DNA of 61,339 nt, the filler included. It is 3 parts of 3 records of this genome, joined end to end, with 100 filler letters (N's around TTAATTAATTAA, not from the genome) between each part and the next. Parts side by side here need not be neighbours in the genome. Positions count along the whole stretch, not along the records: positions 41,269 to 61,339 come from DRR723986_9947; 2 more parts are not named here. One strand, given 5' to 3'. The translations under genes and the position numbers were made by a program. Positions 41,377 through 61,339 of the stretch are shown here, piece by piece. How positions within the stretch are numbered: the stretch's first letter is position 1; each line of letters begins with the position of its first letter. Below the pieces are notes generated by a model, which worked only from the letters and a program-made list of their open reading frames with translations, searched no databases and had not been told where the DNA came from.

Positions 41377-42183
41377 TCAAAAGTTGAGCGGTATCTTTTT
41401 GTCAAGATTTAACATAAATTCGTACATGCCGGGGCTTAGAATCTCGCGCTGCACTTCCAGAGACTTAAGCTCCAGCTCGGCAAAATTGGGTGCGTGGCCC
41501 TCATAGTTAAAATCGACCGGGCGCGTGTTAATCTGGTAAAGCGACATGGAAAGTCCAAGCGAAAAAACGATGGAACTGATGCGTCCGGCCATGCGACGGT
41601 TGTTACCGGCCAGTAGATTCACCAAAATGTTAATCGCCAGAACAGCGGCAATAATGAGTGTAATGTCGTAGTTATTCCACCACCAGATTTGGCCTGTGCC
41701 ACCCACGTAGGTTTCGAGCGGCCAGAACAGGTTAACACCACCCCAAACGCTGTGCGGTGTGGGCATATCCTCAAAAATGTGAATCAGGCAGGCCGCGCTG
41801 AAGGCCGCCATTCCAGGACGCCGGCGCCGAAACCACTGGCTGAATCCGCCCTCATCATCGCCGCGCCACGGTTTAACAATATAACGCAGGAGCGTAAACA
41901 AAAGCGGTGCAAGTATGGCAAAGGCCAGCGAATGTGTTAAAGCGTGATGTGAATACCACCAGGTGCCAAAGTAGATTTCGCGCCCCGTGTGCTCCAGGTT
42001 AAACCAGGCACCGATTGTGCCGTCAAATCCGGACCAGAGTGAAATTACGTCAATATCGGGTAAAGCGCCACCCAGGGCGCCCACCGCAATAATACCGGCG
42101 CGTTCGCCAACTGTACGCCCGCTTTTAGCCGCCACGACCGTGGCAATTGCAGCGCCCGAAAGCGTGTGTGAAATTATGTCCAT
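41377..42183 (-). CDS. Membrane-bound metal-dependent hydrolase (YdjM-like)
   Basis: SHTLSG, LPDID, HHALTHS, HIFED and G..LFWP. Confidence 0.85.
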   Translation of the reverse strand: MDIISHTLSGAAIATVVAAKSGRTVGERAGIIAVGALGGALPDIDVISLWSGFDGTIGAWFNLEHTGREIYFGTWWYSHHALTHSLAFAILAPLLFTLLRYIVKPWRGDDEGGFSQWFRRRRPGMAAFSAACLIHIFEDMPTPHSVWGGVNLFWPLETYVGGTGQIWWWNNYDITLIIAAVLAINILVNLLAGNNRRMAGRISSIVFSLGLSMSLYQINTRPVDFNYEGHAPNFAELELKSLEVQREILSPGMYEFMLNLDKKIPLNF

Positions 42184-42258
42184 TACTGCGTTTCTCTTGC
42201 TCCTGCTTTATACTGCATTTAATTACCAGGCGCGCCTGACATAACACAATTGTGATGT

Positions 42259-45234: not shown

Positions 45235-46142
45235 ATCCACCGTCGCTTTGCAAATGTCAGTTTTTCACTCACGACCAATCTACGTATCCCGTACAGTAAT
45301 AGGCCGAGCGGCAATATAGTCATTTCGCACTTAGATGTTTTACTTGTCTGAACAAATGGGCCTTGTGGCGGTGGATTTCATAAAAAAAGAAGCTTGAGCG
45401 TCGCGCCCCTTGCCAGGCTGCGTGGCTAACTCTTTGATAATTTTGTTAGTTGTTGGGAGGTCGGATTGGAGCAGTTGAGTCTGTGTCGAGACACGGAGAC
45501 TTGGATGTTGGGGGCGTTGTGTTGACCGTTGAGGCGTGGTGACTTGAGTTTTTGAGGATTTGGGTTTTGAGCCACCAGCCACCAGCTGTGAGCCTTGCAG
45601 CTAAAAGACTTGCCGTTCAGACTCGCAGATGCTGCGTTGAGTCTCGCAGGCTGGACTCTGAGACTGTTTGACTTGATTCTCTCAGAATTCGAGTTGTCCA
45701 CATGCCGCGCGCCGCAGCAAATGTCACGGTCGCCATAAAGAGCCGGCCCCCACAGCCCAATGCCCAAGCCAGGAACAGACTGTTAATCAGCGCAAATCCA
45801 CAAGAAATCAACACATCAGCACTTGAGAACTGACTCTATTCCGTCACGGCCAAACAAGTGACTCTGTTTCCAGCACGCAGCGCTTGCGGCGCGAATATTT
45901 GTGATGGACCAAATGACTTTGGACTCGAATCTCGGCGATGTACTGAATTTCTTGACGTTGAAAATTCGGTGACTAACAAGAAACTCATAAGAGCCTGAGG
46001 AGCCCGCAATGCGGTGCTGCTCAAAGCGATCAGTAATTTACAATGCGCGCCAAAACGGCAAAATGTTAATCAGAAAGTGCCGCTACGAGTTAAACAACTC
46101 ATGCAATTGCAAGTGAGAATATTAAACAAAATTACCACATAC

Positions 46143-46171
46143 AAAAACGGGCCGCACTAAGTACGACCCGT
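46143..46171 (-). terminator. Rho-independent terminator of the NRPS/PKS operon
   Basis: Minus strand ACGGGTCGTAC-tta-GTGCGGCCCGT-TTTT, about 30 bp after the PKS stop. Confidence 0.75.
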
Positions 46172-46201
46172 AAATTGCATTACTTTGAACAGAGCTGGAA
46201 C

Positions 46202-49200
46202 TTATAATTCCAGAATCTCCAGATCGCCGTCGGAGCCGGCGGCATTTGTGGCGGTGTCCAGACGCAGATCGCCAATATTGGGAGTGCCGGCCGTAATGAT
46301 ATCCACCAAACGTTTAAAGTCCTCTACCAGCTGTCCGATGCTTTCCGGCGTGAACAGGCTGGTGGCGTACTGCACGTCAACTGTTAAGCCATTTTCGCCC
46401 TCCGCAAAAATAAGCGTCAGGTCGTAACGTGCCGTGGTTGGTGCTATCGGGAATGCGCGCAACTCCAATTCGTCGGGCGCACGCACACCTTCGCCCGCAG
46501 CTGCGCCGGTGTTAACACCTGTAATATTGTACATGTGCAGCACCGAATCGAACAGCGGATGCCGCTCTTCCTTACGCGACATGTTTAAGTCGTCCACGAG
46601 CGTTTCGAAGGGATAATCCTGATTGTCAAACGCTTCCAGCGCACGGCGGCGTATTAGCGCGAGCACATCGCTGAACTGCATATCGGCCGTGATGTGACTG
46701 CGAATAGCCAGCATACTTGCAAACATGCCTGGAATATTTTCCAGCTCAACGCGCTGACGGCCCGCAATTGGCGTACCAACAATTACCTGTGGATTACCGC
46801 TGCGAACGGCCAACAGAGTATGATACACAGCCATCAGAGTCATAAACATGGTTGTGCTGTTTTTGCGGCCCAGCTCCTGCAGTGCGCGCGTGCGCTCCAG
46901 ACCGATCTCAAAGCTGAGGTTAGCCCCGGCAAAACTACGCGGTGCCGGACGTTTAAAGTCGGTGTTTAACACAGCACTTTGAGGTTTATCCTTAAACAGT
47001 TCATGCCAATACTTAGCTTGTTTAAGTCCCTGTTCTTCTTGCAGAAAAGCCTGCTGCCAAACTGCAAAATCCTTAAAGTGAATTGCGAGCCCGGGCAACT
47101 CGTGTTTGTGATACAAGGCGTAAAAGTCGCCCAGGAACGGCGCCGAGGACGCACCGTCAAAGACGATGTGATGCATGTCGTACAACAAGAAATGAAACTC
47201 GGGGTTAACCTGCACAAGCAGGACACGCAAGAGCGGCGCCTGACTAATGTCAAATGCCCGAATAAAATCCTGCGCAATTTCGGCGAGTTCGGACTCGCGC
47301 GCGTGACGCCGTTCTACCTTCAATTCTACCTGTGCATGAATCTTTTGCATCGCGCGCCCATCAACCATGTGGAAGCTGGTGCGGAACGATTCGTGGCGTT
47401 CAACCATGCCGCGGAAACACTCTTCAACGCGCTCGGCATCCAGTTTGCCGTAAATTTTAAGAGCTGAAGGCACGTTAAGTGTTAAGTCGTCGTCCGCCAT
47501 CTGATCGGTAAAAATGCGCATGCCTTCCTGGCTGCTGGAGATCGGATAATACTCAGCTTTTTCGGCCGGTTCGATCGGCGTGTAACGCTCGGTGCGCCCT
47601 TCGCGCACAATATTATCGACGCCGCGCGCCAGCGAGCGAATTGTACTGAAGGTGAAGATGTCCTTAACATACAGCTTAATATTCCAGAGCTGCTCTATGC
47701 GGTTTGCGACCATTGTGCCGAAGAGCGAGTGGCCGCCGAGGCTGAAGAAATCATCGTCCAAACCAATATTCTCACGCTGCAGCAGGGCGCGCCAGATTTC
47801 CGCGACCTTGCGTTCGGTGTCGGACCAGTCGGATTCATCAACGGCGGTGAGGTCGGCATTCTCCGCTCCGTCTTGATCAACCTGGCTGGGCGTGCTTGCT
47901 GTTGTATTCGCTTCTGCCTTTCTACCGTTCGCATTACCATTTGCATGAACTCTTTCATCCGTGTTCGCTGCCGACTGCGGGTTTGCGGCTCCGTTAACTG
48001 CAGCAGCCTGCATTTCCATCCAGCGCTCGTAATCTGCGTCGCTGTAAGGCTCGCGGTACCAGCATGAAACTTTCTCGAACTGATAAGCCGGCAAGTCGAT
48101 GCGACGTCCGCCCTGCAGTTTGTGGAAGGCATTCCAATCCGGCGAGTAGCCGGCTTCGTATAGCTGGCGCAGCAGGTCCAGATAATCTTGCGTGCCGGTC
48201 TGTTTAATCAAACTGAAATAGAGTTCTGCGTCCGGCATTGTAATATTTGCCAGTGTTTCGCCCAGAATTCCGCCACGTGTTAACTCTACGAGGCCAACGC
48301 GCTCATGTGCACCTTCGCTCTCAACAAAGGCGCGCAGTTTGACTGCCAGGTCCTGCGGCACAAGTGGGACGGCATTGGAGGCCATTTGCAGCGCGGTGGA
48401 GAAGTCAATTTCTTCCAGGACGTAGTTAACAGCAATCTCGCCGACACCAACACCGAGCAAGTTATGCGGATGCACACCACAGGCGCGCATCAGCTTGTAA
48501 TTGGCGATCAGGCCGAGCAGCTGTTTAACCTGGGGTGAATCCTGCTGGGCGGCATTCACCTTGTTTAACAGCTGACTATATGTCTCAGCAAAATGCGGGA
48601 AGCGCGCCTGCATTGCCTGCATCCAGCTTTCAAACTGTGCGGCTGAGTCACTTGCGTCGGCGGGCAGCGAGAGTAAAAAGATGACGTTTTTAAGAGTAGC
48701 CTGCGCCGGTGAGCTGTCGGTCTGCTCAGCTGCAGCGGCAACTTGTTGCTGCAGGTCCTGGGCATCGCGGACTACAAATGCGGCGCGATGGTTAAAATGG
48801 CTGCGGCCCGTGTTAAGTGTGCGCGCTATGTCCTGAATTTCGAGATCGGTTTGCTCACCCAGGAACTTGGCTGTTGCCGCCATGTTGGCGCGCAGTCCTG
48901 CAGCGCGCTTGGAACTAAAACTGACCAGCGTTGGAGCCGCGGCGCGGAAAACTTCCGACGGCTGCGGCGCTTCTTCCAGCAGAACGTGCACGTTGTTGCC
49001 TGCAAAGCCATAAGAAGAGACGGCGGCGCGGCGGACTCCCGAATGCGGATTATCCCACTCGCGTAACTCCGTGTTAACAAATGCAGCTGAATCATCAAAG
49101 TTGATAAACGGATTGGGCTTGGTGAAGTGCAGCGAAGGAAACAGTTGGCGCTTGCGCAGCGCCAGAACCGCTTTGCTGAGGCCCGAGAGCCCGGCAACCT

Positions 49201-50230
49201 GATCGGTATGCCCAATGTTGGTTTTAACGCTGGAGACACCGCAGAAATGATTATCGCTACTGAATTCGCGCAGCGCCAGGTTCAGGCCTTTAATCTCTAT
49301 CGGATCGCCCAGCTGCGTGCCGCTGCCGTGCGCCTCAAAATATTCGATGCCGCGCGGATCAATGCCTGCGCGTTTCCAGGTGTCGATTAACAATCGCGAC
49401 TGCGCCAGGCTGCTGGTAGCCGTCAGGCTGGCGGATGTCTGGCCCGAAGAATTATTTCCGGCGGCCGTAATTACCGCCTGGATTGGATCACCATCGGCCA
49501 GTGCGCGGTCAAGCGGCTTAAGTAATACTGAGACGACGGCCTCAGCGCTACCGGAACCTGTTGAGTCGGCGTTAAAACTACGCGTACGACCGTCATGTGA
49601 AGTCACGCCGACATCGACAAAATTGCGTTTGGGGTGGATATGCAGAACTATGCGCGCACCAAGCACCAGCGCGGTGTCCACGCGTCCCAGCTGCAATTGA
49701 TCGACCGCCATGTTAACACCCATCAGCCCGGACGAACAGCCGGTATCCACCAGCATCGTGGGCCCCTGCATGTTAAAGAAACGCGCTATGCGTCCGGCAA
49801 CGGCAAACTGTGTGTTACCGCTGATCATATGCGTTTCTGCAGCCGTCAAATGCTGCTGATACTCATAAGTCGCGTTGGTGACAATCACGGCCGTGCGACT
49901 TTCGTGAAAGTGTTCGGCCGGGTAAGCTGAACTTTCGATAGCTTCCCAGGCCAACTCCATCATCAGGCGTTGATGTGGATCCATGCCCTGCGCTTCGCGC
50001 AGTGAAATGTTAAAGAAGCGATGGTCAAAGGTGTCGACGGATTGGATCCGCCCCATGTCCATAGCTTCTTCTTCCAGAAACGGCAGTGTAGAGTTCTTGA
50101 ACCGTTCTTTGCTGACCGGCGCAATGCAGTCGCGTCCGTCGCGCAGTACCTGGTGAAATTCGTTCAGGTTGTTGGCACCGGGGAATCTTCCGGCCAGTCC
50201 GATGATGGCAATCGGCATTGTCTGACTCAT
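46202..50230 (-). CDS. Hybrid PKS-NRPS: KS - degenerate AT - carrier - terminal condensation domain
   Basis: KS triad DTGCSS / EAHGSGT / NIGH; AT-like region with LLGVGVGEIA in place of GHSxG; FFSLGGHSL; HHIVFDG; no TE or R domain. Confidence 0.92.
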   Translation of the reverse strand: MSQTMPIAIIGLAGRFPGANNLNEFHQVLRDGRDCIAPVSKERFKNSTLPFLEEEAMDMGRIQSVDTFDHRFFNISLREAQGMDPHQRLMMELAWEAIESSAYPAEHFHESRTAVIVTNATYEYQQHLTAAETHMISGNTQFAVAGRIARFFNMQGPTMLVDTGCSSGLMGVNMAVDQLQLGRVDTALVLGARIVLHIHPKRNFVDVGVTSHDGRTRSFNADSTGSGSAEAVVSVLLKPLDRALADGDPIQAVITAAGNNSSGQTSASLTATSSLAQSRLLIDTWKRAGIDPRGIEYFEAHGSGTQLGDPIEIKGLNLALREFSSDNHFCGVSSVKTNIGHTDQVAGLSGLSKAVLALRKRQLFPSLHFTKPNPFINFDDSAAFVNTELREWDNPHSGVRRAAVSSYGFAGNNVHVLLEEAPQPSEVFRAAAPTLVSFSSKRAAGLRANMAATAKFLGEQTDLEIQDIARTLNTGRSHFNHRAAFVVRDAQDLQQQVAAAAEQTDSSPAQATLKNVIFLLSLPADASDSAAQFESWMQAMQARFPHFAETYSQLLNKVNAAQQDSPQVKQLLGLIANYKLMRACGVHPHNLLGVGVGEIAVNYVLEEIDFSTALQMASNAVPLVPQDLAVKLRAFVESEGAHERVGLVELTRGGILGETLANITMPDAELYFSLIKQTGTQDYLDLLRQLYEAGYSPDWNAFHKLQGGRRIDLPAYQFEKVSCWYREPYSDADYERWMEMQAAAVNGAANPQSAANTDERVHANGNANGRKAEANTTASTPSQVDQDGAENADLTAVDESDWSDTERKVAEIWRALLQRENIGLDDDFFSLGGHSLFGTMVANRIEQLWNIKLYVKDIFTFSTIRSLARGVDNIVREGRTERYTPIEPAEKAEYYPISSSQEGMRIFTDQMADDDLTLNVPSALKIYGKLDAERVEECFRGMVERHESFRTSFHMVDGRAMQKIHAQVELKVERRHARESELAEIAQDFIRAFDISQAPLLRVLLVQVNPEFHFLLYDMHHIVFDGASSAPFLGDFYALYHKHELPGLAIHFKDFAVWQQAFLQEEQGLKQAKYWHELFKDKPQSAVLNTDFKRPAPRSFAGANLSFEIGLERTRALQELGRKNSTTMFMTLMAVYHTLLAVRSGNPQVIVGTPIAGRQRVELENIPGMFASMLAIRSHITADMQFSDVLALIRRRALEAFDNQDYPFETLVDDLNMSRKEERHPLFDSVLHMYNITGVNTGAAAGEGVRAPDELELRAFPIAPTTARYDLTLIFAEGENGLTVDVQYATSLFTPESIGQLVEDFKRLVDIITAGTPNIGDLRLDTATNAAGSDGDLEILEL

Positions 50231-50257
50231 ACAAAGCTCCTGCTTGCAGCAAGCAAA

Positions 50258-53200
50258 TTACAAACTGATTTTGCCAATCCGTTGTTTGGATGGCTGGTTC
50301 GTGTTTTCTTGGTTAACCGCTGAGGCGGAATGATTTGAATCCTGCGTTGCATTTACGGCTTCAGCCTGTAAACGCACCGTATTTTTGTCGAACATATCGG
50401 CCACGTCAAACACGCCCGGGAATGCAGATTGCAAACGTGTTAACAATGCAATACTCTTGAGCGAGTTTCCGCCCTGGTCGAAGAAGTTGGCATGCACGTC
50501 GGGCTCAGCAAAGTCAATCGTTGCCTGCCAGATAGACACAATCCGGCGTTCCAGATCGTTAGCTGGTGCGGTGCGCTCGGCACCGGATGCGACTGACTGT
50601 TCGTCTGCATGACGAAGCGCTTTGTAGTTAACTTTTCCATTGGGCAGACGCGCCAATGCATCTGTTAGGTGAAGTTTATGCGGCTGCATGTGTGCCGGCA
50701 TCTGCGCACGCATGAATTCGCGTAGTTCGCGACGTGTTTGTGCATCGGGCTCTCTATCTGCCTTCAGCTCGGCATAAGCATGTAATTGCGGTCCCGCCGG
50801 CTGCCGCCACAGTTTAACAGCCGCACGTTCCACGGCGGGATGATTAAACAAACAACGTTCAATTTCACCTAGCTCAATGCGGAAGCCGCGAATCTTAACC
50901 TGATCATCGCTGCGCCCTACAAACTGTAAATTTCCATTGGCTAATATGCGCGCGTGGTCGCCGCTGCGATACATGCGTGCACCGGGAATACTCGAATATG
51001 GGTCCGGCACAAACGCCCAGGCCGTTGTTGCCGGACGCTTGTGATATCCGCGCGCCAGCTGCGGACCACTGATCCACAGGTCTCCAATGCTTCCAGGAGG
51101 CACGGGCCGTCCAGCGGCATCCAGCAGGTATATTTGCGTTCGTCCCACGGGTAGCCCGATTGGCACTGTGCCGCGCGTTGGCTGTGCCGCGCAGTCTACA
51201 ACATCTATCGTAGCGCTGATAGTCGTTTCGGTCGGCCCGTAACAGTTAAACAGTTCGCAGTGCGGCAGGCGCGCAGCAAATTGTGTAACGCCGGGCCGCT
51301 GTCCGGCTTCGCCGCCCATCACGACGCGGCGTAAATTGGGCAGGGTAATTTTTGTGTCGCCGGCGGCCATCCATTCCTGCCAGAAGGCGGTCGTCATCGA
51401 CGCTACACTTATCGACTGCTGCGCCAGGAAGGCCTCATATGCACCGAAGTCGCCCATGTCCGCGGTCTGCGGCAGTACAATTACCGCGCCGGCACAGAGC
51501 GGCGCAAACAACTCTTCAATCGCGGCATCGAAGTTAATCGAGGTGAACTGTGCGTAGCGATCGCTTGAGTCTAACTGACTCAGCATCTGAAAAGCCTGCA
51601 GGTACTCCGCCATCGCCGCTTGTGTGATGACCACGCCCTTGGGTCTACCGGTCGAACCCGAAGTGTAGATCACATAAGCGGCCTGTTCTGGGCTGATTTC
51701 CACGTGAGTAAATTGTGGAGCGTCTGAATTCACATCCGCAGAAGTTTTTTCCGGGAGCTGATCAATGCGTATGCTCGGCCGGCCGGCAAACACCTCCGCA
51801 TCGGCGCTGGAGGCATCGAGCAGCACAAGCTGCGGCGCAGTATCGGCCAACATCATTTTTAGGCGCTCAGCCGGATAGGCAATATCCAGGGGCACAAAAG
51901 CCGCTCCACAACGCAGAACCGCAAGTAATGCGGCCGGAAGTACAACCGTACGCGCCAGGGCAATGCCTACAAAGTCTCCGGGCCCGACCCCGCGCGCCTG
52001 CAGGTGCGCTGCCAGTTTACGGCTATAGTCATCCAGCTCTGTGTATGTTAAACAGGCATCCGCTGAATCAAGCGCCGGCCGCGAGCCATGCATGGCAGCA
52101 GTCTGCTCAAAGACTGCGGTAAACAAGTCTGCAGGTTGGTCTGCCACCGGGCCATCTGACGCAAGAACTGCGGACTCAGCGGCGCTGAGCGCGTGGATTG
52201 TCGCGAGGGGCCTGTCCAGATTTTGGCTGAGCTGCTCAAGTAGCGCTACAAACCTGCGGCCCATGTTCTCGACACTTGAATGCTCAAACAGATCGCTGTT
52301 GTATTCAATGATTGCACGCATGCCGCGCGCGTCTTCGGCCATTGACAGTGAGAGTTCGAACTTGGCGACATCAAACTCGGCCTCAAGCATGCTTATGTTA
52401 AGTTCGGAGAGTGCGAGCGGTGCCATCGGCGCATTCTGTACGTCGAACATTACCTGCACCAGTGGACTGCGCCCGGCCGGGCGTTCCACGTCGAGTAATT
52501 CCAGCAGTTCGTCAAATGGCAGGTCCTGATTTGAGTAGGCCTGCAGACAGCTCTGCATGACCGACTGCATGAACTCCCGCACCGTAGCGCCACTCTCTTG
52601 TTTAACACGCAGGACTAATGTGTTAACAAAAAAGCCCATCACCGATTCAAATTCGGGGCGGTTGCGGTTGGCAATCGGTGCGGCTATCAGTACATCCTCG
52701 GAGTGCGCGTGGCGCCCCAACAGCAGTCCCCAGGCTGCCAGGTATGTCATGAAAGTTGTGGCACCCAAGTCTTTGCCGAGCTGCTCCCAGCGCGCCTGCA
52801 AGTCTGGAGAAATCGTCAGGTCTACATGCCCACCGCTAAAAGTCTGTACAGCTGGGTAATCGTGATCCGTAGGCAGATGCAATAGCGTCGGTGCGCCCTG
52901 CAGCGCCGATGTCCAATATTCGCGTTGTTGATCCAGGCCGCCAGCCGCGCGCCAGGCACGCTGCCAGACCGCAATATCGGCGTACTGTAACTGTTCGCGG
53001 TTTAGTGCATGTTCGCCGCCATAAAATCGAACCAGGTCATTAACAAATATGTTAAACGACCAGGCATCTCCGGCGATGTGATGCACATTAACAATCAGCA
53101 GGTATTCGCCGGACGGATCAATGGTACCGGCGTCCTGTGCGGCATGCTGTAGAACAATTAACATGCAGCGCAGCGGATGTTCTTCTGCCAGCTTAAAGGC

Positions 53201-56200
53201 GTAGCCGAACTGCGTGTGCACAATCTGTTTAACTTCTCTGGCCTGCTCCGCCGCAGTTAAGCCACGCAAATCAACTTCTTCAAAGTGAGCTTGCGCGGCC
53301 GGGTCTATAATTTGACGTGGCTCCTGCGCGCCGGACTCCAGCACTATGCGCGTCCGCAGAACATCATGTTGTTGAACGAGCAGATCCAGCGAAGTACGCA
53401 ATTGCGTTCGGTCCAGGCCGCCCTGCAGTTTAAGTGCGGCAGGCATGTTGTAGGCCGCCGATGCTCCAGGCATGTGTGCCAGGAACCACAGGCGACTCTG
53501 CGCCGCACTCAGCGGTGCCGTGCTGTGCTGTGCACAAACGGCAGGCAATTGTGGCAAGTCCTGTGCCGCCCGGCTCGTGACCTTGTCCAGAGTGCTGGAA
53601 GCCTGCCGGGAGTCAAGCTGGTTTTGCATCGAACGCAGCATACCGCGCGGAGTTGGTGTGTTAAACACCTGCGATATGGGAACATCGACTTCAAACTCTG
53701 TGCGCAGGCGCGAGGCCAGCTGCGTCGCCAATAGCGAGTGGCCACCAAGATTAAAGAAGTTTGCCTGCGGACCAAATGTCTCAAGCTGCAGAACCCCGGC
53801 AAAAATCGAACAGACCTGCGCTTCGCGTTCATCGGCCGGCTGTTCCACCAGATCCGGCGACGCTTCACTGTTAATTTCGAGCAAGGCCCGCCGATCGATT
53901 TTACCGTTGACGGTCAGTGGCAACACATCAACGAACACAACTTCGGCCGGGATCACATAATTCGGCAGATGTTTGCCTGCAAATTCCGTCAGTTCGCCCG
54001 GCGCAAGCCCTGTATCCGTGCGCTCAACAAATACCGCCATACGCCGGTTTTCCGCCGCCGTACCGCGAATCACAACAGCTGCGCGCCCGACGTTTGCATG
54101 CCTGCTCAGTGTCGCTTCGACTTCACGTGGATCGATGCGATGCCCGGCAATTTTAACCTGCCTGTCAATCCGTCCCAAAAACTCCAGCGTGCCGTCGCGG
54201 CGCATGCGCACGCGGTCACCAGTGCGATACAGGCGGCCCCCAGCTTGTGTAGCGAATGGATCCGGCACAAAACTGAGCGCCGTGCGGCGCGGATCACGTG
54301 CATAAGCACGCGCAAGTCCTTCACCTCCGGCATACAATTCCCCTGCCAGCATCGGCGGCTGCGGCTGCATATTTGCATCCAACACGCGAATACTGGTACC
54401 CGAAATCGGGCTGCCGAGCGGGACTGCCGCTACGCCGTCATAGTCGCGTGGAACTTCATACACAGCCGTAAAGGTCGTGTTTTCGGTCGGCCCATAACCA
54501 TTTAATAGTTTTGTATTCGGCAGTGAATGTAGAGCTTGTTTAACATGCTCAGGCGAAAGCACATCACCACCGGCCAAAAGATAACGCAGCGCCGTAAGTT
54601 TTTCAGCGGCTACATCAATCATCAAGGAGAACAAACCGCTCGTTAGCCACAAAACGCTGAGCCGATTATCGGCAATGAATTCCGCCAACTCGTTAACACC
54701 GGCGCGCGGCCGCGTTTGCAGAACCAGTTCCGCACCGTTAAGCAGCGCCATAAACACTTCAAAAGTCGAGGCATCAAAACCAAGTGGTGCCAGCGCGCCG
54801 ATCCGATCGCTCGAATCAATCTTGATCCAGTCCGGCTCTACACACAGCCGTTCTATCGCGCGCTGTGGAATGACCACACCTTTGGGTGTGCCGGTTGAAC
54901 CCGAAGTAAACATTACATATGCCGCATGCTCAGGACCGGCATAAAAACGCGGTTCGCGTGCCGGCAGTTGCATTGCCTCTACCCGTGCGGCCTCTATGTC
55001 CACAACCGCAAACTCTTTGCCCAAACTCGTAGCGGAAGAAGGTGCGAGCAGCAACTGCACATCGGCAATTGCACACATTTGTTTAAGTCTGGCGGCCGGA
55101 TAATTTGCATCCAGCGGCACATAGGCCGCACCTGCGGCCAGGATGCCGAGAATTAATGCGATGTCCTGCGCAGAACGCTCCAGTACAATTGCGACGCGTG
55201 CATCAGCGCCAATCCCGCGCGCGTTTAACCAGGCCGCCCAGCGACGCGCAGCCGCCTGTAGCTCAGCATATGTTAAATCTTTGGTAGCCGTGTGCAGGGC
55301 CAATGCGTCGGGCTGCTGCGCTACAACTTCATCAAAACGCGCCATTATGCCGCTGCGCATTTTGTTCTGCAGTTTGCCGGTCGCTAACTGCTCCAGTCTG
55401 CTCTGCTCGTCCGGCAGCAGAATCGGCAGTTCACTTAAACACAACTCCGGACGGCTGCTCCACGCGTGCAGAATCTGCAGGATACGCCCATTCCATTCCT
55501 GTATGCTCGCCGGTGTAAAAAGACTGCTGCGGTATTCCCACATGTTAACCAGTGTCTCGCCGTCTTCGATCGTTGTCAGGGAACAATCGAACTTCGCATT
55601 TTGCTGATCCGGGACGTAAGACTCGAAACTAACACCAGAGAGACTGACACGATCCGCGGGCATGATATGATTCATGTAAACGGTCTGGATAATCGGGTCC
55701 TGGTCTGTGCGCCGCTCAGGCTCCAGCACTTCCACAATGCGCTCAAAAGCGGTGTCCTGCCGTTGATTAGCCGCAAGTATTACAGCGCGTACACGCCCCA
55801 GCAGCGTGCGGAAGTCAGGGTCGTCATTCAGCCGCACCCGCAGCGCCAGTGTGTTGGCAAAAAAGCCGATGATCGCTTCAAATTCACTGTGATTGCGGTT
55901 TGCCACCGGCGAACCAATCACAAGGTCTGTCTGGCCGGTCAAACGCGCCAGCAAAGCAGCGTAAAGCGTGACTCCCAGCATGAAACTCGTGACGCCCGAA
56001 TCACGCGCCAGCTTGCGCCAGCGCGCCGCGTCTTCTGTCTTGAATTCGATTAACAATTGGCGCCCAGCGTGTTCCTGCACGGCCGGACGTGCAAAGTCCA
56101 GCGGCCAGTCCATCGACTGCGGCACCGCACGTAGCTGCGCCTTCCACCAACTTAACTGAGTCTCCAGCTCAGCGCGCCGCGCCGCCGAATGCTGCCAGAC

Positions 56201-57058
56201 CGCAAAGTCTCCATACTGCACCGGCAGGGCCGGTAGCTCCGGTTGCCCGCCTGCAGCAAAAGCCGCATAGGCTGCAATTACTTCTCGCTGAAAGATTTCT
56301 ACCGACCAGCCATCGGAAATGATGTGGTGTTTGCTGTAAATTAACATGTGGCGCTGCTCCGCCAACTTCACCAGAAGAACACGCAGCAGCGGCGCCTGCT
56401 CCAGATCAAAACTGTAGCGACGCTCAGTCTCAATGATTTTATCCAGGGCCAATTTTTGCGCCGAGGCATCCAGCGCGCTCAGATCGGTCGGCTCCCCCAG
56501 CACGCTGTCCCTAAGAATGTTAACTTTCTGATACGGACGGCCATCCTTTGAATGAAAACTCGTGCGCAGACTTTCATGCCGCGCTGTTAAATAGTCAAAG
56601 GCCTGACGCAGCGCCGGAACCGAAAGTTCGCCGTTCAACTCTTTCAGGTCGAACATATTGTAGGCATTGTGCGCCGTCTCTGCGAGCTGATCCAGGAACC
56701 ATAGGCGCAACTGCGTGTGGCTCAGCGGTAAACTACCACTGCGGTTCGCCACCGGAAACTTGCGCGCCGCAGGCACGACAGATGCTGGCTCTGCGGCCTC
56801 CGCTGCAACCGTATCGTCGGCGGAAGTCCGCCGCAGAAAATCTTTAAGCGCTTCCTTGTTGGACTTCAGGCGTTGTTTAAGTTCGGCATTCAGCGCTCCC
56901 TTGGGTGCGCTGAAACGCAGCACGTCACCGTCGCGAAGCTGTAGCTTGACTCCGCGTTTTACCAACTCATCTATCAACAGTTGTAAGTCTTCGGTCGCAG
57001 TCGCCGCAGTAACCTGGCCCGCAGCCGCAGCTGTATTTGTCCCGGAGGCATGACTCAT
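50258..57058 (-). CDS. Bimodular NRPS: TubC_N docking - C-A-T - C-A-T
   Basis: GVKL...LRFSAPKGAL docking domain; HHIISDG and HHIAGDA; two TSGSTGxPKG/YGPTE A domains; GGHSL and GGNSL carriers. Confidence 0.95.
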   Translation of the reverse strand: MSHASGTNTAAAAGQVTAATATEDLQLLIDELVKRGVKLQLRDGDVLRFSAPKGALNAELKQRLKSNKEALKDFLRRTSADDTVAAEAAEPASVVPAARKFPVANRSGSLPLSHTQLRLWFLDQLAETAHNAYNMFDLKELNGELSVPALRQAFDYLTARHESLRTSFHSKDGRPYQKVNILRDSVLGEPTDLSALDASAQKLALDKIIETERRYSFDLEQAPLLRVLLVKLAEQRHMLIYSKHHIISDGWSVEIFQREVIAAYAAFAAGGQPELPALPVQYGDFAVWQHSAARRAELETQLSWWKAQLRAVPQSMDWPLDFARPAVQEHAGRQLLIEFKTEDAARWRKLARDSGVTSFMLGVTLYAALLARLTGQTDLVIGSPVANRNHSEFEAIIGFFANTLALRVRLNDDPDFRTLLGRVRAVILAANQRQDTAFERIVEVLEPERRTDQDPIIQTVYMNHIMPADRVSLSGVSFESYVPDQQNAKFDCSLTTIEDGETLVNMWEYRSSLFTPASIQEWNGRILQILHAWSSRPELCLSELPILLPDEQSRLEQLATGKLQNKMRSGIMARFDEVVAQQPDALALHTATKDLTYAELQAAARRWAAWLNARGIGADARVAIVLERSAQDIALILGILAAGAAYVPLDANYPAARLKQMCAIADVQLLLAPSSATSLGKEFAVVDIEAARVEAMQLPAREPRFYAGPEHAAYVMFTSGSTGTPKGVVIPQRAIERLCVEPDWIKIDSSDRIGALAPLGFDASTFEVFMALLNGAELVLQTRPRAGVNELAEFIADNRLSVLWLTSGLFSLMIDVAAEKLTALRYLLAGGDVLSPEHVKQALHSLPNTKLLNGYGPTENTTFTAVYEVPRDYDGVAAVPLGSPISGTSIRVLDANMQPQPPMLAGELYAGGEGLARAYARDPRRTALSFVPDPFATQAGGRLYRTGDRVRMRRDGTLEFLGRIDRQVKIAGHRIDPREVEATLSRHANVGRAAVVIRGTAAENRRMAVFVERTDTGLAPGELTEFAGKHLPNYVIPAEVVFVDVLPLTVNGKIDRRALLEINSEASPDLVEQPADEREAQVCSIFAGVLQLETFGPQANFFNLGGHSLLATQLASRLRTEFEVDVPISQVFNTPTPRGMLRSMQNQLDSRQASSTLDKVTSRAAQDLPQLPAVCAQHSTAPLSAAQSRLWFLAHMPGASAAYNMPAALKLQGGLDRTQLRTSLDLLVQQHDVLRTRIVLESGAQEPRQIIDPAAQAHFEEVDLRGLTAAEQAREVKQIVHTQFGYAFKLAEEHPLRCMLIVLQHAAQDAGTIDPSGEYLLIVNVHHIAGDAWSFNIFVNDLVRFYGGEHALNREQLQYADIAVWQRAWRAAGGLDQQREYWTSALQGAPTLLHLPTDHDYPAVQTFSGGHVDLTISPDLQARWEQLGKDLGATTFMTYLAAWGLLLGRHAHSEDVLIAAPIANRNRPEFESVMGFFVNTLVLRVKQESGATVREFMQSVMQSCLQAYSNQDLPFDELLELLDVERPAGRSPLVQVMFDVQNAPMAPLALSELNISMLEAEFDVAKFELSLSMAEDARGMRAIIEYNSDLFEHSSVENMGRRFVALLEQLSQNLDRPLATIHALSAAESAVLASDGPVADQPADLFTAVFEQTAAMHGSRPALDSADACLTYTELDDYSRKLAAHLQARGVGPGDFVGIALARTVVLPAALLAVLRCGAAFVPLDIAYPAERLKMMLADTAPQLVLLDASSADAEVFAGRPSIRIDQLPEKTSADVNSDAPQFTHVEISPEQAAYVIYTSGSTGRPKGVVITQAAMAEYLQAFQMLSQLDSSDRYAQFTSINFDAAIEELFAPLCAGAVIVLPQTADMGDFGAYEAFLAQQSISVASMTTAFWQEWMAAGDTKITLPNLRRVVMGGEAGQRPGVTQFAARLPHCELFNCYGPTETTISATIDVVDCAAQPTRGTVPIGLPVGRTQIYLLDAAGRPVPPGSIGDLWISGPQLARGYHKRPATTAWAFVPDPYSSIPGARMYRSGDHARILANGNLQFVGRSDDQVKIRGFRIELGEIERCLFNHPAVERAAVKLWRQPAGPQLHAYAELKADREPDAQTRRELREFMRAQMPAHMQPHKLHLTDALARLPNGKVNYKALRHADEQSVASGAERTAPANDLERRIVSIWQATIDFAEPDVHANFFDQGGNSLKSIALLTRLQSAFPGVFDVADMFDKNTVRLQAEAVNATQDSNHSASAVNQENTNQPSKQRIGKISL

Positions 57059-59475
57059 ATTTCGCCCTCCTCAAAGTCTTCAGTCTCTGAGTCACACACA
57101 GTCAGTCGCTTAACAATTTCTTCAGAGTTCAACTGCGAAGCCGTAATTTCCTGCACGCCCGAAGGCAGCATATACGCCGGAATCCGCTCACGCAAAAACT
57201 GCTGCAGCGAATGCACATCCGGCGCCACACGGCCGGCCAGAGGACATATCTCGACTACGATCGACGTGTTAACAACATCGGCTCCCCTAAGCTGATCAGA
57301 ATCAAACTCTCCATCCGCAGCAAGGGCGGGCCGCACATCGGCCCACGCAACTGCCGGATGTTGTTCGACTGCCATACGTAATTCATTTAATTCAAACTCA
57401 AACTCTCCGGCTTTGAGACTCGCGTCTCCGCCCGATAGTTCGATCATATTAGCTGGTATCCGCCGTGCGCGCACAGTCCCCAGACCGTCAAAATGTGTCA
57501 GCGGCTGTGTAGTGTCGGCACTAACCTGCAATTTGCCGGCCACACCGGCGGCCAAAACCTGCCCCTGCCGCCCAATGATGCTGTATGCCTGGCCTGCGAG
57601 CGCTTGCAGCTGTGGTAAAGCTGTGCTGTTAACACTCTCCAGACTAAACTCTTTTGTCGCTACTGCCGCACCGGCGGCGCGCAGCTCAAAACGCAGATGC
57701 ACGTCCGGCATCAGTTGGAAGTGACGCTCCAGCAGTGCATATGACGGGTACTCTCCAATTAAACAAATGGTCTGGGCCTCCGGCGCGCACATTAATCCGG
57801 CGGCCTGGATGCGTGCCAGTGCCGTCATATACTCACGGCTGTTAAACACGAGTGCGGCTGTATTGGCCTCTGCCGCAGGGTGTGCTGCCCTACCCTTCCA
57901 GTTCACCTCGGAACTCAAAGCCTCCAGCCGCAAGTCCTTCAGCTGCGCAGCCTCTGCCGTACAGAGTCGCTCCAGAATTTCAGTCAGCACTGCCCGCATC
58001 TGTTTAACAAGCTGCGCATCAAAGGCCGCGCTGTTAAACTTCAGGGAACCAAGCACACGCTCGTCAATCAGCCCCACTTCCAGTGCCAGGTCAAACTGCC
58101 CCGTCTGCAGAACATGTTCCTGCATTTGCAGCTCCAAATCCGCAAACTTCACCCAGCCGGATGTTTCCGTGTTGTCCGGAACGGAATCATGCGCCAAACT
58201 CTCAGCAGAACGCTCGTTTGTTTGTTCTGCCGCTGCCTCAGAGCGTTTACTGCGCGCCTGCGCCCTAATCAATTCACGCATCAAACCTTCCGTCGGCAGA
58301 CTCTGAACTACCAGCGCAGATTGGAATGCAGGTGTGATTGCCGCACTCCGCGGAAAACCTCCAGCCGCAACAATGTCGCCAAACGGTAAATGCCGCCGAC
58401 GCAGCCCCGCCTGTACGCTCGACTTTACGGCCGCCACATAATCTGCCAAGGTCATGCTGTCCTGCATCTGCAGACGCAAGGGCAGCATGTTGATGAAGTA
58501 GCCCACCGCCGAACGCATTTCCGGCAAGGCGCGCAAAGTTGTTGGGCTGCCGACCGTGCAATCATCGCTCTGGCAAAACTCGCGCAGCATCAGCCCCCAG
58601 CCCGCCAGAAGCAGAACGTAGAGTGAGGTGTCCAGCTCACGCGCCCGCCGCTGCAAGGCACCGGACTCTGCCGCCGAAAGCTCAAAGCGCAGCGCAGCGC
58701 CTTTAACTTCCCGCACCGCCGGACGCGGACGCCGCACCGGTAGATTTGTCATCGCCTTGGCCGAAGCCAGGCTGCTGCGCCAAAATGCCCGCGCCGCAGT
58801 GCTTTCCGCGCTCGCTAAATATTCTTGTTCGGCAATATGTGCGGCGCTTACATGCGCGCGACTGCTCAACTTTGAAGCCACCGGCACTTCGGCTTGAGCA
58901 TAGAGTCGCAAAAGGTCGTCTACCAACACGCCCATCGACCAATAGTCAACTACAATGTGATGTGCCGCAATAATCAGGAGCGCTTCTTCGGCGGCACCAT
59001 GCAGCTCGGAGCGCCGGGGACGCAGGAGCACAATCCGCGCCAGCTGCTCGTCCAGCTTAAATGCGCGTTTGCCATACTCAGCGCCATAGGCCTGCCATGC
59101 AGCAGCATCCCGCGCAGATGAGCCCGGTACACCAACTTCTTCAAGCCGTAGCGGGCTTGCACTAATATGCAATTGCGTCTCGGCCAACGAGCTGTCACAA
59201 CGTGCGCTGATTGCGGGATGCAGTTTGCTGAGTGCGCGCACTGCTTTACGCAATCGATTGATATCGAGCGCGCCGCGTACTTTAATAGCCGTGAATATGT
59301 TGTAACTATCCGAATCCGGCTCTTCGCTTTGCAACAGATACATCGCTGCCTGTCCGGATGTCAAAGCCACCTGTTGTTGCAGGTCTGCCGTGCCGTGCCG
59401 GATCAAACGTGTAAGAAGAGCGCGTTTCTGCGCAGGGCTCAGTGCTTGTAGAGCTTGCAGTGAAGCCTGTTTCAT
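57055..59475 (-). CDS. Condensation-domain protein with decayed adenylation remnant and SLiM docking tail
   Basis: LSPAQKRALL leader; HHIVVDYWS, VGYFINMLPLR and FDLAL; A-domain C-terminal relic (ELNEL..AVEQHPAV; LRERIPAYMLP); ends EDFEEGEI; no carrier motif. Confidence 0.85.
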   Translation of the reverse strand: MKQASLQALQALSPAQKRALLTRLIRHGTADLQQQVALTSGQAAMYLLQSEEPDSDSYNIFTAIKVRGALDINRLRKAVRALSKLHPAISARCDSSLAETQLHISASPLRLEEVGVPGSSARDAAAWQAYGAEYGKRAFKLDEQLARIVLLRPRRSELHGAAEEALLIIAAHHIVVDYWSMGVLVDDLLRLYAQAEVPVASKLSSRAHVSAAHIAEQEYLASAESTAARAFWRSSLASAKAMTNLPVRRPRPAVREVKGAALRFELSAAESGALQRRARELDTSLYVLLLAGWGLMLREFCQSDDCTVGSPTTLRALPEMRSAVGYFINMLPLRLQMQDSMTLADYVAAVKSSVQAGLRRRHLPFGDIVAAGGFPRSAAITPAFQSALVVQSLPTEGLMRELIRAQARSKRSEAAAEQTNERSAESLAHDSVPDNTETSGWVKFADLELQMQEHVLQTGQFDLALEVGLIDERVLGSLKFNSAAFDAQLVKQMRAVLTEILERLCTAEAAQLKDLRLEALSSEVNWKGRAAHPAAEANTAALVFNSREYMTALARIQAAGLMCAPEAQTICLIGEYPSYALLERHFQLMPDVHLRFELRAAGAAVATKEFSLESVNSTALPQLQALAGQAYSIIGRQGQVLAAGVAGKLQVSADTTQPLTHFDGLGTVRARRIPANMIELSGGDASLKAGEFEFELNELRMAVEQHPAVAWADVRPALAADGEFDSDQLRGADVVNTSIVVEICPLAGRVAPDVHSLQQFLRERIPAYMLPSGVQEITASQLNSEEIVKRLTVCDSETEDFEEGEI

Positions 59476-59621
59476 ACCAATTGCGGAAATGGTGACCGGA
59501 GCTGCGCAGCATCAATCAGTGGATGCACATGCTGCCAACGAACCCGCGAATATACCTAAATTTTGGCACACCTGCAGCAATACAGGGCCTGCTTCTTCAC
59601 CTGTTAACTTCCCATTGAGGC

Positions 59622-59644
59622 AGGCCTTTACGACCAAAAGGCCT
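59622..59644. terminator. Intergenic hairpin downstream of the DUF697 gene
   Basis: AGGCCTTT-acgacca-AAAGGCCT; no clear U tract. Confidence 0.35.
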
Positions 59645-59684
59645 CGGTGGAATTGTATCGTAAGCCCAGGTCCGGCAATCAGGA

Positions 59685-61157
59685 CTACGTAGCTTGTGCT
59701 TCTTGTTTTTCAGCATCGGAGGCCTCGCGTTTCCAACGTTCTGAAACCGTGCCGGCTTCCGCGTACACCTCCCGAAAATGAATCTTCATCTTTTCAGGAT
59801 CAAATGAGAAAAAGCTTCCGCCAGACTCAAAGTGGTAAATAAATATCTTGCCCACCGCGTAGGTAAACGCTGCTCCGAAAGCCGGCATCGTCAGGAAGCC
59901 CAGCAAACGTCCCACACCGGAAAACAGCATCAGGCCAGTACTTGCCGCACCCAGCCCCAGCGTCGTCGCCGTAATCGAGGAAAGCAGTGCGCCCACGTAG
60001 GCCTTGCCGTCATTCTCTGAAAATCGCAAATTGTATTTTTCCGTCAGCCGCCGCAGCATTTTGACCTGCACAACAGTCAGCGCCGCAATATCCAGCCACG
60101 GAATCGGCACGAGGCCCGTGCCCGCCGAATACAGACTAAAGCGTTTGACAACTTTCATGGCCTCCCGCAGACGCGCACGCTCTTCTTCCGGAGTGAGCGG
60201 CACCATCGTCGCCTCCGTCACAGGAATCTCTTTCTCCGCTCCAGCGCTGGTGTTGTTTTGGGCCTCTCCAGTTTTAGACTCCGCAGTTGTAGCTTTGGAT
60301 TGGGCATTACCGTCTTTTGTTTGTTGGTTGGCCTCCGTAGCTGTATCACTGGTTGATGACGCACTCTGGGCGCCGGCCGCCGCTTTTGCCTGCTTGCTTC
60401 TGGCGCTACTTTTTGTGCCAGTACTGGTTGACTTCTTAGCTTCACTTTCCGCGGCACTTTCCGCAACAATTTTCGCCTCAACTACTGGAATCTCTCTCTC
60501 CGCGGCCGCACTTTTGGATTCAGCCTCAGCCGCAGTTTTAGCCGAAGTTTTGGCAGCTGTTCCGCTTATTTTCTGTCCTGTAGTTTTGGACTTGGCGGCA
60601 CGTGTTTTGGCGGTGGTCGCTTTGGCTGCGGGAGCTTTGGCGGCACTTACTTCACTCGCGGGGACAGCCTCGGCAGCTTTGCTGGCCTCTTTTTGAGCTT
60701 TTTGTTTTGCACTGGGTGAGGATGCCCGCGTCTTTGGGCTCGCAGACTTTTTGCGTGGAGTCTTGGCGCCGGCAGGCTTGGGTTCCGTCTCAGAGGCTGG
60801 AGACCCTGAGGCTGGATTGTCGGCTGACGTATCGGCTGACTCGGGGGCTGACGTATCGGCAGTAGATTCAGCTACTTTTGATGTGTGCGCCGCACCGGCC
60901 GTGCGCGCTCCTCCAGGTTTTGCGGCCGCCTTTGATCTGGAGCGCCGCACCGGTTTCTGCGCATCGGTCGCGCCTGAAGAAGTATCTGGCGCATCGGCGC
61001 TTGCGGACGCAGCGGCGGCGCTTTTATCGGCCGCTCCGGCATCTGAATCTGGAGTTTCATAGAGGCGCCGACGCGAGCGGCGCACTGTAGGACGCGGTGT
61101 TTTGTCATTTGACGCAGAGTCTGCGTCGGGTGTATCTTCGTCGGGAAACTGGTTCAT
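59685..61157 (-). CDS. DUF697/YcjF-like protein with about 320-aa low-complexity N-terminus
   Basis: C-terminal GLVPIPWLDIAALTVVQVKML...Y and TYAVGKIF..HFESGG; N-terminus rich in A/S/K/T/E. Confidence 0.82.
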   Translation of the reverse strand: MNQFPDEDTPDADSASNDKTPRPTVRRSRRRLYETPDSDAGAADKSAAAASASADAPDTSSGATDAQKPVRRSRSKAAAKPGGARTAGAAHTSKVAESTADTSAPESADTSADNPASGSPASETEPKPAGAKTPRKKSASPKTRASSPSAKQKAQKEASKAAEAVPASEVSAAKAPAAKATTAKTRAAKSKTTGQKISGTAAKTSAKTAAEAESKSAAAEREIPVVEAKIVAESAAESEAKKSTSTGTKSSARSKQAKAAAGAQSASSTSDTATEANQQTKDGNAQSKATTAESKTGEAQNNTSAGAEKEIPVTEATMVPLTPEEERARLREAMKVVKRFSLYSAGTGLVPIPWLDIAALTVVQVKMLRRLTEKYNLRFSENDGKAYVGALLSSITATTLGLGAASTGLMLFSGVGRLLGFLTMPAFGAAFTYAVGKIFIYHFESGGSFFSFDPEKMKIHFREVYAEAGTVSERWKREASDAEKQEAQAT

Positions 61158-61237
61158 ATGCTGGTCCTGAGCTGCAAGTGAGTATAGGCCGAACTGGTAA
61201 CTGAGAGACTAAAATATTAAATTCTGGAGCCTCGAAT

Positions 61238-61320
61238 TTTTCAGGCGGCAACAGCTGTTAGCCTTAGGCTAACAGCTCGATTTCGCTAGGCCAAAATTTT
61301 CAGGCGTCTACAGCTGTTAG
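61238..61320. repeat. Direct repeat pair plus perfect inverted repeat upstream of the cluster
   Basis: TTTTCAGGCGnnnACAGCTGTTAG at 61238-61261 and 61297-61320; AGCTGTTAGCCT-t-AGGCTAACAGCT at 61253-61277. Confidence 0.8.
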
Positions 61321-61339
61321 GTACTGTGTTAAAAATCAA

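Follow-up and report, generated by a model that had tools for sequence, protein, structure and literature searches.

A rare, horizontally acquired NRPS-PKS cassette bracketed by condensation domains and conserved together with a DUF697 gene

The 61,339-nt stretch of DNA analyzed in this study (the window) was found to carry, toward its end, three tightly linked minus-strand genes, g1, g2, and g3, encoding a line of nonribosomal peptide synthetase (NRPS) and polyketide synthase (PKS) domains that begins and ends with condensation (C) domains. Together with the gene for a DUF697 membrane protein they form a conserved four-gene cassette, since that gene lay directly upstream of g1 on the same strand in the window as well as in both relatives, the only ones found (3/3 loci). 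The cassette is real, intact, rare, and horizontally acquired, and it probably makes a small molecule by an unusual route. Both relatives reside in alphaproteobacterial metagenome-assembled genomes (MAGs), one labeled "bacterium" (locus L007) and the other an uncultured Hyphomicrobiales (L008), in which the counterparts of g1, g2, and g3 encode proteins of 757, 2216, and 1336-1341 amino acids (aa) with the same gene overlap and the same four-gene order as in the window.

The g1 and g2 genes overlapped by 4 bp, g2 and g3 were separated by 27 bp, and a terminator-like hairpin followed g3. With A, T, KS, and AT denoting adenylation, carrier, ketosynthase, and acyltransferase domains, the domain order was C0 and a truncated dead A (g1), a beta-hairpin dock followed by C1-A1-T1-C2-A2-T2 (g2), and KS-dead AT remnant-T3-C3 (g3). 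Thioesterase (TE), reductase (R), ketoreductase (KR), dehydratase (DH), and epimerase (E) families were all absent from g1-g3 by Pfam, and the unassigned stretches were too short for any of them. A sequence-only reading made earlier on this DNA was thus borne out in three respects, namely, the layout by the open reading frame (ORF) calls and the hairpin, the architecture by Pfam, hhalign, and a fold search, and the lack of TE, R, KR, DH, and E domains by Pfam; the DUF697 gene as a conserved cassette member and the island setting go beyond it. The features of the cassette are as follows:

59685..61157, minus strand: DUF697 protein, 490 aa, first cassette member (Pfam DUF697 at residues 327-464)
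57055..59475, minus strand: g1, 806 aa, beginning with a conserved basic helix, followed by C0, the truncated dead A remnant, and an acidic docking tail; no carrier (ORF, Pfam, orthologue alignment)
57925..59379, minus strand: C0, divergent condensation domain, g1 residues 33-517, motif kept in all three orthologues (Pfam)
57058..57924, minus strand: degenerate truncated A domain, g1 residues 518-806 (hhalign, weak PDB match)
50258..57058, minus strand: g2, 2266 aa, with a beta-hairpin dock, C1-A1-T1-C2-A2-T2, and a conserved basic C-terminal tail (Pfam, orthologue alignment)
56831..56977, minus strand: TubC_N-type beta-hairpin docking domain, g2 residues 28-76 (PF18563 at 42.7 bits, above its cut-off of 26), kept in both MAG orthologues
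55403..56746, minus strand: C1, elongation-type, g2 residues 105-552, canonical His-His-x-x-x-Asp-Gly (alignment)
53864..55381, minus strand: A1, g2 residues 560-1065, core motifs intact (alignment)
53636..53818, minus strand: T1, g2 residues 1081-1141, Ser of GGHS present (Pfam, alignment)
52163..53524, minus strand: C2, elongation-type, g2 residues 1179-1632 (Pfam, alignment)
50597..52156, minus strand: A2, g2 residues 1635-2154, core motifs intact (alignment)
50351..50578, minus strand: T2, g2 residues 2161-2236 (Pfam, alignment)
46202..50230, minus strand: g3, 1342 aa, with KS, a linker domain, a dead AT remnant, a post-AT linker, T3, C3, and a conserved tail (Pfam, alignment)
48941..50230, minus strand: KS, g3 residues 1-430 (Pfam, alignment)
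48026..48937, minus strand: KS-AT linker domain, shortened AT-fold remnant, and post-AT linker, g3 residues 432-735 (fold, alignment)
47624..47809, minus strand: T3, PCP-like GGHS, g3 residues 808-869 (Pfam, alignment)
46289..47557, minus strand: C3, terminal condensation domain, g3 residues 892-1314, canonical His-His-x-x-x-Asp-Gly (Pfam, alignment)
46171-46147, minus strand: terminator-like hairpin of 11 pairs followed by a T run, ~30 nt past the g3 stop

No stop or frameshift was found in the 13.3 kb of g1-g3, and alignments of the window with the two orthologous MAG loci showed the catalytic motifs of the four C, two A, and three T domains and the KS to be intact. His-His-x-x-x-Asp was kept in all four C domains of the three orthologues, with the following Gly position taken by Tyr in C0 and by Ala in C2, and the phosphopantetheine Ser was present in T1, T2, and T3, while g1 contained no carrier domain by Pfam. 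The ratio of nonsynonymous to synonymous substitution rates (dN/dS), given here as one pairwise Nei-Gojobori estimate between the two MAG copies, was 0.28 for g1, 0.14 for g2, and 0.088 for g3. By region, it rose from 0.019 (KS) and 0.029 (T3) through 0.034 (DUF697 domain), 0.061 (C3), 0.085 (C1), 0.117 (C2), and ~0.14 (A1 and A2) to 0.26 (AT remnant) and 0.28 (C0 and A remnant). No region of the cassette looked neutral; the remnants were under relaxed and C3 under strong constraint.

The sole Pfam family in g1 was Condensation (residues 33-517). The best solved relative of C0 was Txo2 (5e-38), and C0 stood on a long branch in the C-domain tree. No Pfam family, AMP-binding included, matched the 289-residue remainder even at E 10, and one solved A domain matched it weakly in the C-terminal part of A (E 0.005). 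With a profile of the three orthologous tails, residues ~624-775 (57151-57606) were aligned by hhalign to the last third (A6-A9) of the g2 A domains (96.7%, E 4e-10). Because the N-terminal two thirds of the A domain, with the P-loop and binding pocket, were missing, adenylation by the g1 remnant would be impossible. The metagenomic C-A proteins L021, L023, and L026, which matched g1 up to residue 772-791 over 925-953 codons and were ~170-215 residues longer, would fit a shortened A part in g1. The last eight residues of g1 (57058-57081) formed the tail DFEEGEI, invariant in the three orthologues; structure prediction of the region after C0 (three-sequence alignment) gave a mean pLDDT of 47.3, which was too low to use.

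In g2, Pfam identified TubC_N, two Condensation, two AMP-binding (with AMP-binding_C), and two PP-binding domains, and identity to the MAG copies was even along its length. The best solved relatives of C1 and C2 were Txo2 (3e-84) and Txo1 (3e-68), respectively; a starter-type assignment of C1 was rejected, as the solved surfactin starter C matched it at only 2.8e-21. Both A1 and A2 possessed the P-loop, pocket Asp, and A10 Lys and matched A domains in the PDB down to 1e-136. At what we take to be the GrsA pocket positions, A1 displayed Asp, Ala, Phe (Leu in the MAGs), Trp, Leu, Ala, Gly, Thr, Phe, and Lys, and A2 displayed Asp, Ala, Glu, Ser, Val, Met, Cys, Ile, Ser, and Lys, the latter set being identical in the three orthologues. 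As leads, the A1 code presumably resembles Val-type codes, and that of A2, with an acidic residue at position 239, is presumably nearest to Lys-type ones.

Pfam matches in g3 comprised the N- and C-terminal ketoacyl-synt families, KS-AT linker families, PP-binding (808-869), and Condensation (892-1314), with no Acyl_transf_1. The Cys-His-His triad of the KS was intact in the window, in both MAG orthologues, and in a 1316-aa g3 paralogue encoded elsewhere in the MAGs. Residues 432-735 were predicted to fold with a pLDDT of 91.9 (34-sequence family alignment), and the best structural matches were KS-AT didomains and AT domains (Foldseek E 5e-12 to 1e-8, TMq ~0.6-0.7). Since the structural alignments spanned ~440 columns, the model points to an AT fold with part of it missing. 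Three glycines of a G-x-G-x-G were invariant in 34/34 family members at the expected serine-motif spot, which was placed by eye and by one non-significant local alignment, and Ser was absent there in the four copies inspected. The post-AT linker was recognizable by sequence (E 1.5e-6) and was the only part that hhalign aligned between the remnant and one real AT (probability 71%). Neither this remnant nor the A remnant of g1 can be catalytic. The motif of T3 was GGHS, as in peptidyl carrier proteins (PCPs) and not acyl carrier proteins (ACPs), and was the same in the family consensus.

The best solved relative of C3 was the TycC PCP-C (1e-89), and in a tree of 18 C domains, in which the rest were poorly split apart from the long-branched C0, C3 grouped with the C domain of the 1316-aa paralogue (support 97/94). 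Among the 120 relatives of g3 listed, ~57 by eye had this same domain set in a free-standing protein of 1201-1387 aa, whereas fused ones (P0062, P0082, P0116) continued with A-T or A-T-TE. KS-dead AT-T-C proteins are therefore a common mid-line split-module type, and C3 descends from an ordinary PKS-to-NRPS junction C domain, given its grouping with the mid-line paralogue and the fused A-T relatives. The g3 protein ended in EILEL (46205-46225), identical in the three orthologues. Conservation along g3 was uneven, KS and T3 being 90-91% identical to the MAG copies (90% and 91%) versus 64% for C3 and 53% for the AT remnant, which reflects either very strong constraint on the KS-carrier pair or a more recent exchange of that part.

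The DUF697 protein consists of an N-terminal part of ~320 low-complexity residues (Ala 24%, Ser 14%, Thr 11%, Lys 11%; 34 lysines) and a DUF697 domain with two hydrophobic segments according to its hydropathy. The C-terminal region was 71-72% identical to its only two homologues within the length range searched in a collection of 5.8 billion proteins, both of them MAG proteins, so that its conservation equaled that of g3 and exceeded that of g1 and g2. The N-terminal part evolved rapidly (dN/dS 0.66). A short basic motif near the N-terminus was common to the window and L008; the L007 copy ends at a contig end. Among the papers listed on DUF697, none dealt with its function as judged from titles and the openings of abstracts, and none was found that combined DUF697 with a nonribosomal peptide.

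The rarity of the cassette was most evident for g1. In the same protein collection, only two of 55 matches (P0004 and P0005, 39% identity) were full-length relatives, the others covering at most 63%, and a collection of genome contigs yielded two full-length relatives and one partial one from 227 pattern matches. Full-length g1 occurred in 2/254 genomes of the MAGs' order, these two being the MAGs themselves, and in 0/301 sampled genomes of the window's family, 13 of which matched g1 in its C-domain part only. The 30 relatives from a metagenome scan were at most 34% identical and all lacked this form of g1, while a HMMER search of the whole library with a g1 profile was dominated by giant multi-module NRPSs, with one of the best 150 (P0004) covering the tail. 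Identity to the MAG orthologues was 39-45% for g1 (C0, 44-46%; A remnant, 35-36%), ~61% for g2, and 71% for g3. No NCBIfam equivalog model reached its cut-off, the best being PRK05691 at 140 and 322 bits against 4090, and the closest proteins to g1, g3, and the DUF697 protein were MAG proteins without a named product. With g1 and the DUF697 protein having two homologues each, the earlier remark that the architecture was not recognized as a described cluster was supported; the literature on Rhodobacteraceae hybrid clusters likewise provided nothing relevant.

The cassette proved to be carried on an island:

30593..61339, no strand: low-GC island carrying the cassette, at least 30.7 kb, its far end beyond the window (GC and genome comparison)

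The GC content fell from 61-67% before ~30 kb to 50-57% after it. The nearest genome compared (99% complete) was 95-97% identical to the window up to ~30592; beyond this point it gave one 48-nt match of chance level in 30.6-40 kb and none in 40001-46300. It contained no g1, with only a 33%-identical KS elsewhere. In addition, none of 21 ORFs downstream of g3 (25.7-46.2 kb, 20.5 kb) belonged to NRPS or PKS families, and none of 21 ORFs scanned in 25.7-61.3 kb contained an AT family that could represent a dedicated trans-AT.

In the MAGs, g3 was followed by a gene for a 1045-aa nuclease/protease-like protein, an ABC transporter gene, and then a second, self-contained line (G002 contig C1, 170374-224868; loci L011-L017). 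This line comprised, in order, a fatty acyl-AMP ligase (FAAL)-ACP, a 2739-aa T-C-A-T-KS-AT-KR-T protein ending in EYEEGEL, a dock-bearing NRPS with four A domains, FkbH-type extender genes, the 1316-aa g3 paralogue, a 2885-aa protein consisting of a C-lobe remnant-A-T, a TE-bearing final NRPS, and a type II thioesterase. The start of the 2885-aa protein (L012, 15409-16368, minus strand) retained only the C-terminal C lobe (Pfam Condensation 285-456, E 4e-5), and its boundary with the paralogue appears to be a split C/A junction whose downstream subunit retains half a C domain. All 17 C-domain matches in each MAG fell within the single region holding both lines, each MAG had only two beta-hairpin docks, and, a 330-aa FabD-like gene aside, each encoded ATs only in cis in the second line and within a distant 1948-aa PKS.

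These neighbors also bear on how the subunits of the cassette would assemble. Because DFEEGEI, the tail of g1, is close to EYEEGEL, the tail of the 2739-aa protein that precedes the only other dock-bearing protein, g1 is most likely seated on the dock of g2; the tail in g1 follows an A remnant, not a carrier protein. The basic tail of g2 resembled the one on the protein that precedes the g3 paralogue, which would fit the order g2 to g3. The g3 paralogue ended in an acidic-hydrophobic tail similar to that of g3, and both g1 and the 2885-aa protein after the paralogue began with a basic helix before a C-type fold. The cassette thus contains two acidic tails (g1 and g3) and one beta-hairpin dock. 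When the g2 dock was modeled in complex with the g3 tail, the score was 0.17 against a mark of 0.34, which spoke neither for nor against binding.

The explanation that we tentatively prefer, at rather less than an even chance, is that the cassette is self-contained and furnishes an N-capped dipeptide to which one malonyl unit is added without reduction, the product being taken off by C3. In such a line, g1, with C0 and the A remnant, would be seated on the N-terminus of g2 with its acidic tail bound to the beta-hairpin dock. A1 would load a branched hydrophobic, Val-like residue on T1 and A2 an unusual, possibly cationic residue on T2; C0 and/or C1 would cap the first residue, using a donor whose synthesis lies outside the cassette, and C2 would form the dipeptide. 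The KS would add one malonyl unit to the dipeptide, with a housekeeping FabD-type enzyme loading the PCP-like T3 in trans, and, there being no reductive domain, a beta-keto-acyl chain would remain on T3. Without a thioesterase, C3 would release this chain by condensing it with a nucleophile, either an amine or alcohol in solution or an internal amine, and the DUF697 protein would be expected to anchor the machinery in the membrane or to deal with the product there. A chemically reasonable variant would be ring closure by C3 of the tetramic-acid type, for which reutericyclin and jamaicamide JamQ provide precedents. Macrolactam release via the side-chain amine of residue 2 was set aside, as by our own count the ring would have only 8-9 members.

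This explanation is supported by the conservation of the four-gene set in two different contexts, by the completeness of the neighboring MAG line in itself (FAAL-ACP start, TE end) with two unrelated genes between it and the cassette, by the terminator-like site after g3 with no NRPS or PKS in the downstream ORFs, and by the His-His-x-x-x-Asp motif in every C domain together with the strong constraint on C3. Release by a terminal C3 is plausible, and PMC5640695 describes bacterial clusters that lack a TE and end in C domains, as well as AT-less modules where a fatty-acid malonyl transferase is the sole one in the genome. On the other hand, several points weigh against it. C3 resembles a typical elongation C domain and is sister to the C domain of a mid-line paralogue that an A-T protein follows, and, because the fused relatives of g3 continue with A-T or A-T-TE, its ancestral acceptor was a carrier-bound amino acid. 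C1 also appears elongation-like, yet the cassette has no carrier upstream of it, and the strictly conserved tail of g3 suggests a protein partner. No gene for amine or acyl-donor supply and no trans-AT gene was conserved beside the cassette in the window and MAG loci, the substrate assignments of A1 and A2 are leads only, resting on presumed pocket positions, and partner subunits may be encoded elsewhere, as the window reaches only 182 nt past the start of the DUF697 gene. The sequence-only proposal of a self-contained line with off-loading by a C domain was thus partly supported: the recurrence of the gene set in two MAGs, the intact C motifs, and the strong constraint on C3 speak for it, and the elongation-type C1 and C3, the mid-line paralogue, the docking-like tail, and the lack of an amine gene conserved beside the cassette against it.

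That reading had also offered a segment of a larger line, and this alternative stays live, although we regard it as rather unlikely. Here, the cassette would be the front of a longer line, and C3 would condense the T3 chain onto an amino acid on a separate A-T(-...-TE) subunit bound by the g3 tail; in the MAGs, the partner could be the 2885-aa protein, already serving the paralogue, and the strain of the window would encode it beyond the stretch analyzed. The elongation-type C3 and its sister relationship to the mid-line C would be explained in this manner, as would the protein with a C-lobe remnant and A-T after the paralogue, the fused KS..T-C-A-T(-TE) relatives, the ~57 free-standing proteins of a common split-module type, the acidic-hydrophobic pattern shared by the tails of g3 and the paralogue, and the confinement of all 17 C-domain matches per MAG to the region of both lines. 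Yet the last five residues of g3 were identical in the window and the MAGs, even though 0/21 downstream ORFs in the window encode an NRPS or PKS and the adjacent line of the MAGs is absent there. Moreover, the MAG line is complete by itself, the nearest genome lacks the whole island, and the four-gene set is conserved, whereas the neighboring line is not.

An improbable arrangement is a closed recursive ring, where the g3 tail would dock back on the basic N-terminal helix of g1 or on the g2 dock and the T3 chain would be passed back to T1 with its Val-like residue. Oligomers built of residue 1, residue 2, and ketide, perhaps cyclic, would then be released by one of the surplus C domains, with the DUF697 protein as a membrane tether, an outcome to which we assign the same low probability, and it is just as doubtful that the cassette is a bacterial, C-domain-driven counterpart of the fungal cyclo-oligomer synthetases. 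The ring would account for four C domains against three carriers, for the elongation-type C1 and C3 that have no partner carrier in a linear line, for two acidic tails against one dock, for the basic helix that g1 and the 2885-aa protein share, and for the conservation of the g3 tail and g1 helix in three orthologues. Against this, back-docking has no direct evidence, three C domains would lie between T3 and T1, more than one condensation requires, and a single carrier precedes C3, where the fungal enzymes have twin carriers; no bacterial precedent was found in the literature searched. A still bolder variant would have C3 pass the chain on to the DUF697 protein, namely, to one of the 34 lysines of its disordered N-terminal half. 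Finally, it is very improbable that the cassette is a decaying remnant of a longer line that makes no product, its first module having lost most of A and the carrier and its last having lost A-T-TE. Such decay would explain the truncated A and AT remnants, the lack of a carrier in g1 and of a release domain, and the fast evolution of g1 relative to g2 and g3. However, the reading frames are uninterrupted, and the intact catalytic motifs in three orthologues together with dN/dS values of 0.02-0.28, the A remnant (0.28) and AT remnant (0.26) included, indicated that the cassette is not a relic and argued against pseudogenization, which the earlier reading had named as evidence that would count against it. 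Likewise, the truncated g1 with its invariant tail was common to lineages only ~40% identical, so that the truncation is old and maintained, and the glycines of the AT remnant were invariant in 34/34 family members.

Returning to the cassette's surroundings, one further feature was noted upstream of the DUF697 gene:

61238..61320, no strand: a pair of direct repeats (~24-27 nt each, 59 nt apart) together with a perfect palindrome of 12+12 nt, within the AT-rich non-coding sequence that precedes the DUF697 gene

Two matches to these repeats occurred in the window versus 0 in 100 shuffles, and none of 54 loci examined contained them; 61238-61320 is a candidate operator/promoter region for the cassette. 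Rfam gave no match on 45000-61339. At its other end, the island seems to start in or just after a truncated solute-binding-protein gene (29674-30600), a 268-aa ORF covering only positions 172-353 of the SBP_bac_5 profile. A CobW-type GTPase gene (30718-32058) precedes 32307-37201, where a 1137-aa ORF contains two sulfatase stretches and its end overlaps, in another frame, a 519-aa ORF whose sulfatase match starts only at mid-profile; the two may represent a frameshifted or fused sulfatase gene. Genes for a TadE-like, a VWA and Tad, and a second TadE-like protein (38969-41216) lie between the sulfatases and YdjM/DUF2339 membrane-protein genes.

If the four genes suffice for a product, they would constitute a compact, transferable line that works with condensation domains only, in which a carrier-less C subunit is held by a docking tail and malonate is loaded without a dedicated acyltransferase, and they would provide the first function-linked context for the uncharacterized DUF697 family. 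At ~15 kb, the cassette is small enough to be expressed and dissected, and it raises the questions of how terminal C domains choose their nucleophile and why dead A and AT remnants are kept. If a partner encoded elsewhere is needed, the cassette would be an ordinary orphan fragment.

Among known systems, the closest to g3 were the free-standing KS-(AT remnant)-T-C proteins of the MAGs (the 1316-aa paralogue), Chitinophaga, Taibaiella, Pedobacter, and Paenibacillus, which share its domain set, length, three glycines, and PCP-like motif at 30-49% full-length identity. They differ in that the paralogue is followed by an A-T protein and the fused relatives continue in cis, whereas g3 is the last synthase gene of its operon. 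To our knowledge, none of these free-standing relatives has been tied to a product. The g2 dock and the short acidic g1 tail resembled TubC_N-type docking in tubulysin, epothilone, rhabdopeptide, and enacyloxin. According to a review (PMC9113145), a tail of fewer than 15 residues binds an N-terminal beta-hairpin domain at PCP/C or PCP/Cy junctions. In the cassette, where docking is predicted from sequence, the tails follow a dead A remnant (g1) or a C domain (g3) instead of a carrier.

Lines off-loaded by C domains include those of rhabdopeptide, zeamine/fabclavine, and enacyloxin, and VibH of vibriobactin. Like TE-less lines of this kind, the cassette has neither TE nor R and ends in a C domain with an intact motif. 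In PMC5640695, terminal or stand-alone C off-loading is described for crocacin, FK520, C-1027, and 9/33 complete Legionella clusters, and the TE-less Legionella clusters, like the cassette, have no AT, Legionella having only the fatty-acid malonyl transferase. The cassette differs from these lines in having no nucleophile gene (polyamine, decarboxylase) conserved beside it, a C3 close to the TycC elongation C domain and not a divergent release-type one, and an extra carrier-less C protein at its front. For the latter, a partial parallel is fimsbactin FbsE, in which, according to PMC11661926, a truncated non-adenylating A domain is kept beside C-type domains in a working NRPS subunit and carriers are loaded in trans. 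The g1 protein is like FbsE in its truncated A domain, although it is without any carrier, while FbsE keeps its carriers. The fungal synthetases of the enniatin/beauvericin type are recursive, C-bracketed, and TE-less, with twin carriers before the last C domain. As in these cyclo-oligomer depsipeptide synthetases, a two-module, C-bracketed line without a TE is present in the cassette; they differ in being single polypeptides with twin carriers and in having neither a KS nor a separate C-A remnant subunit. Taken together, the parts of the cassette are all of known kinds, namely, beta-hairpin docking, AT-less KS modules, terminal C domains, and truncated A domains; what is new relative to the literature and databases searched is their combination, in which a carrier-less C and A-remnant subunit with a docking tail joins a C-bracketed line and a dedicated DUF697 partner.

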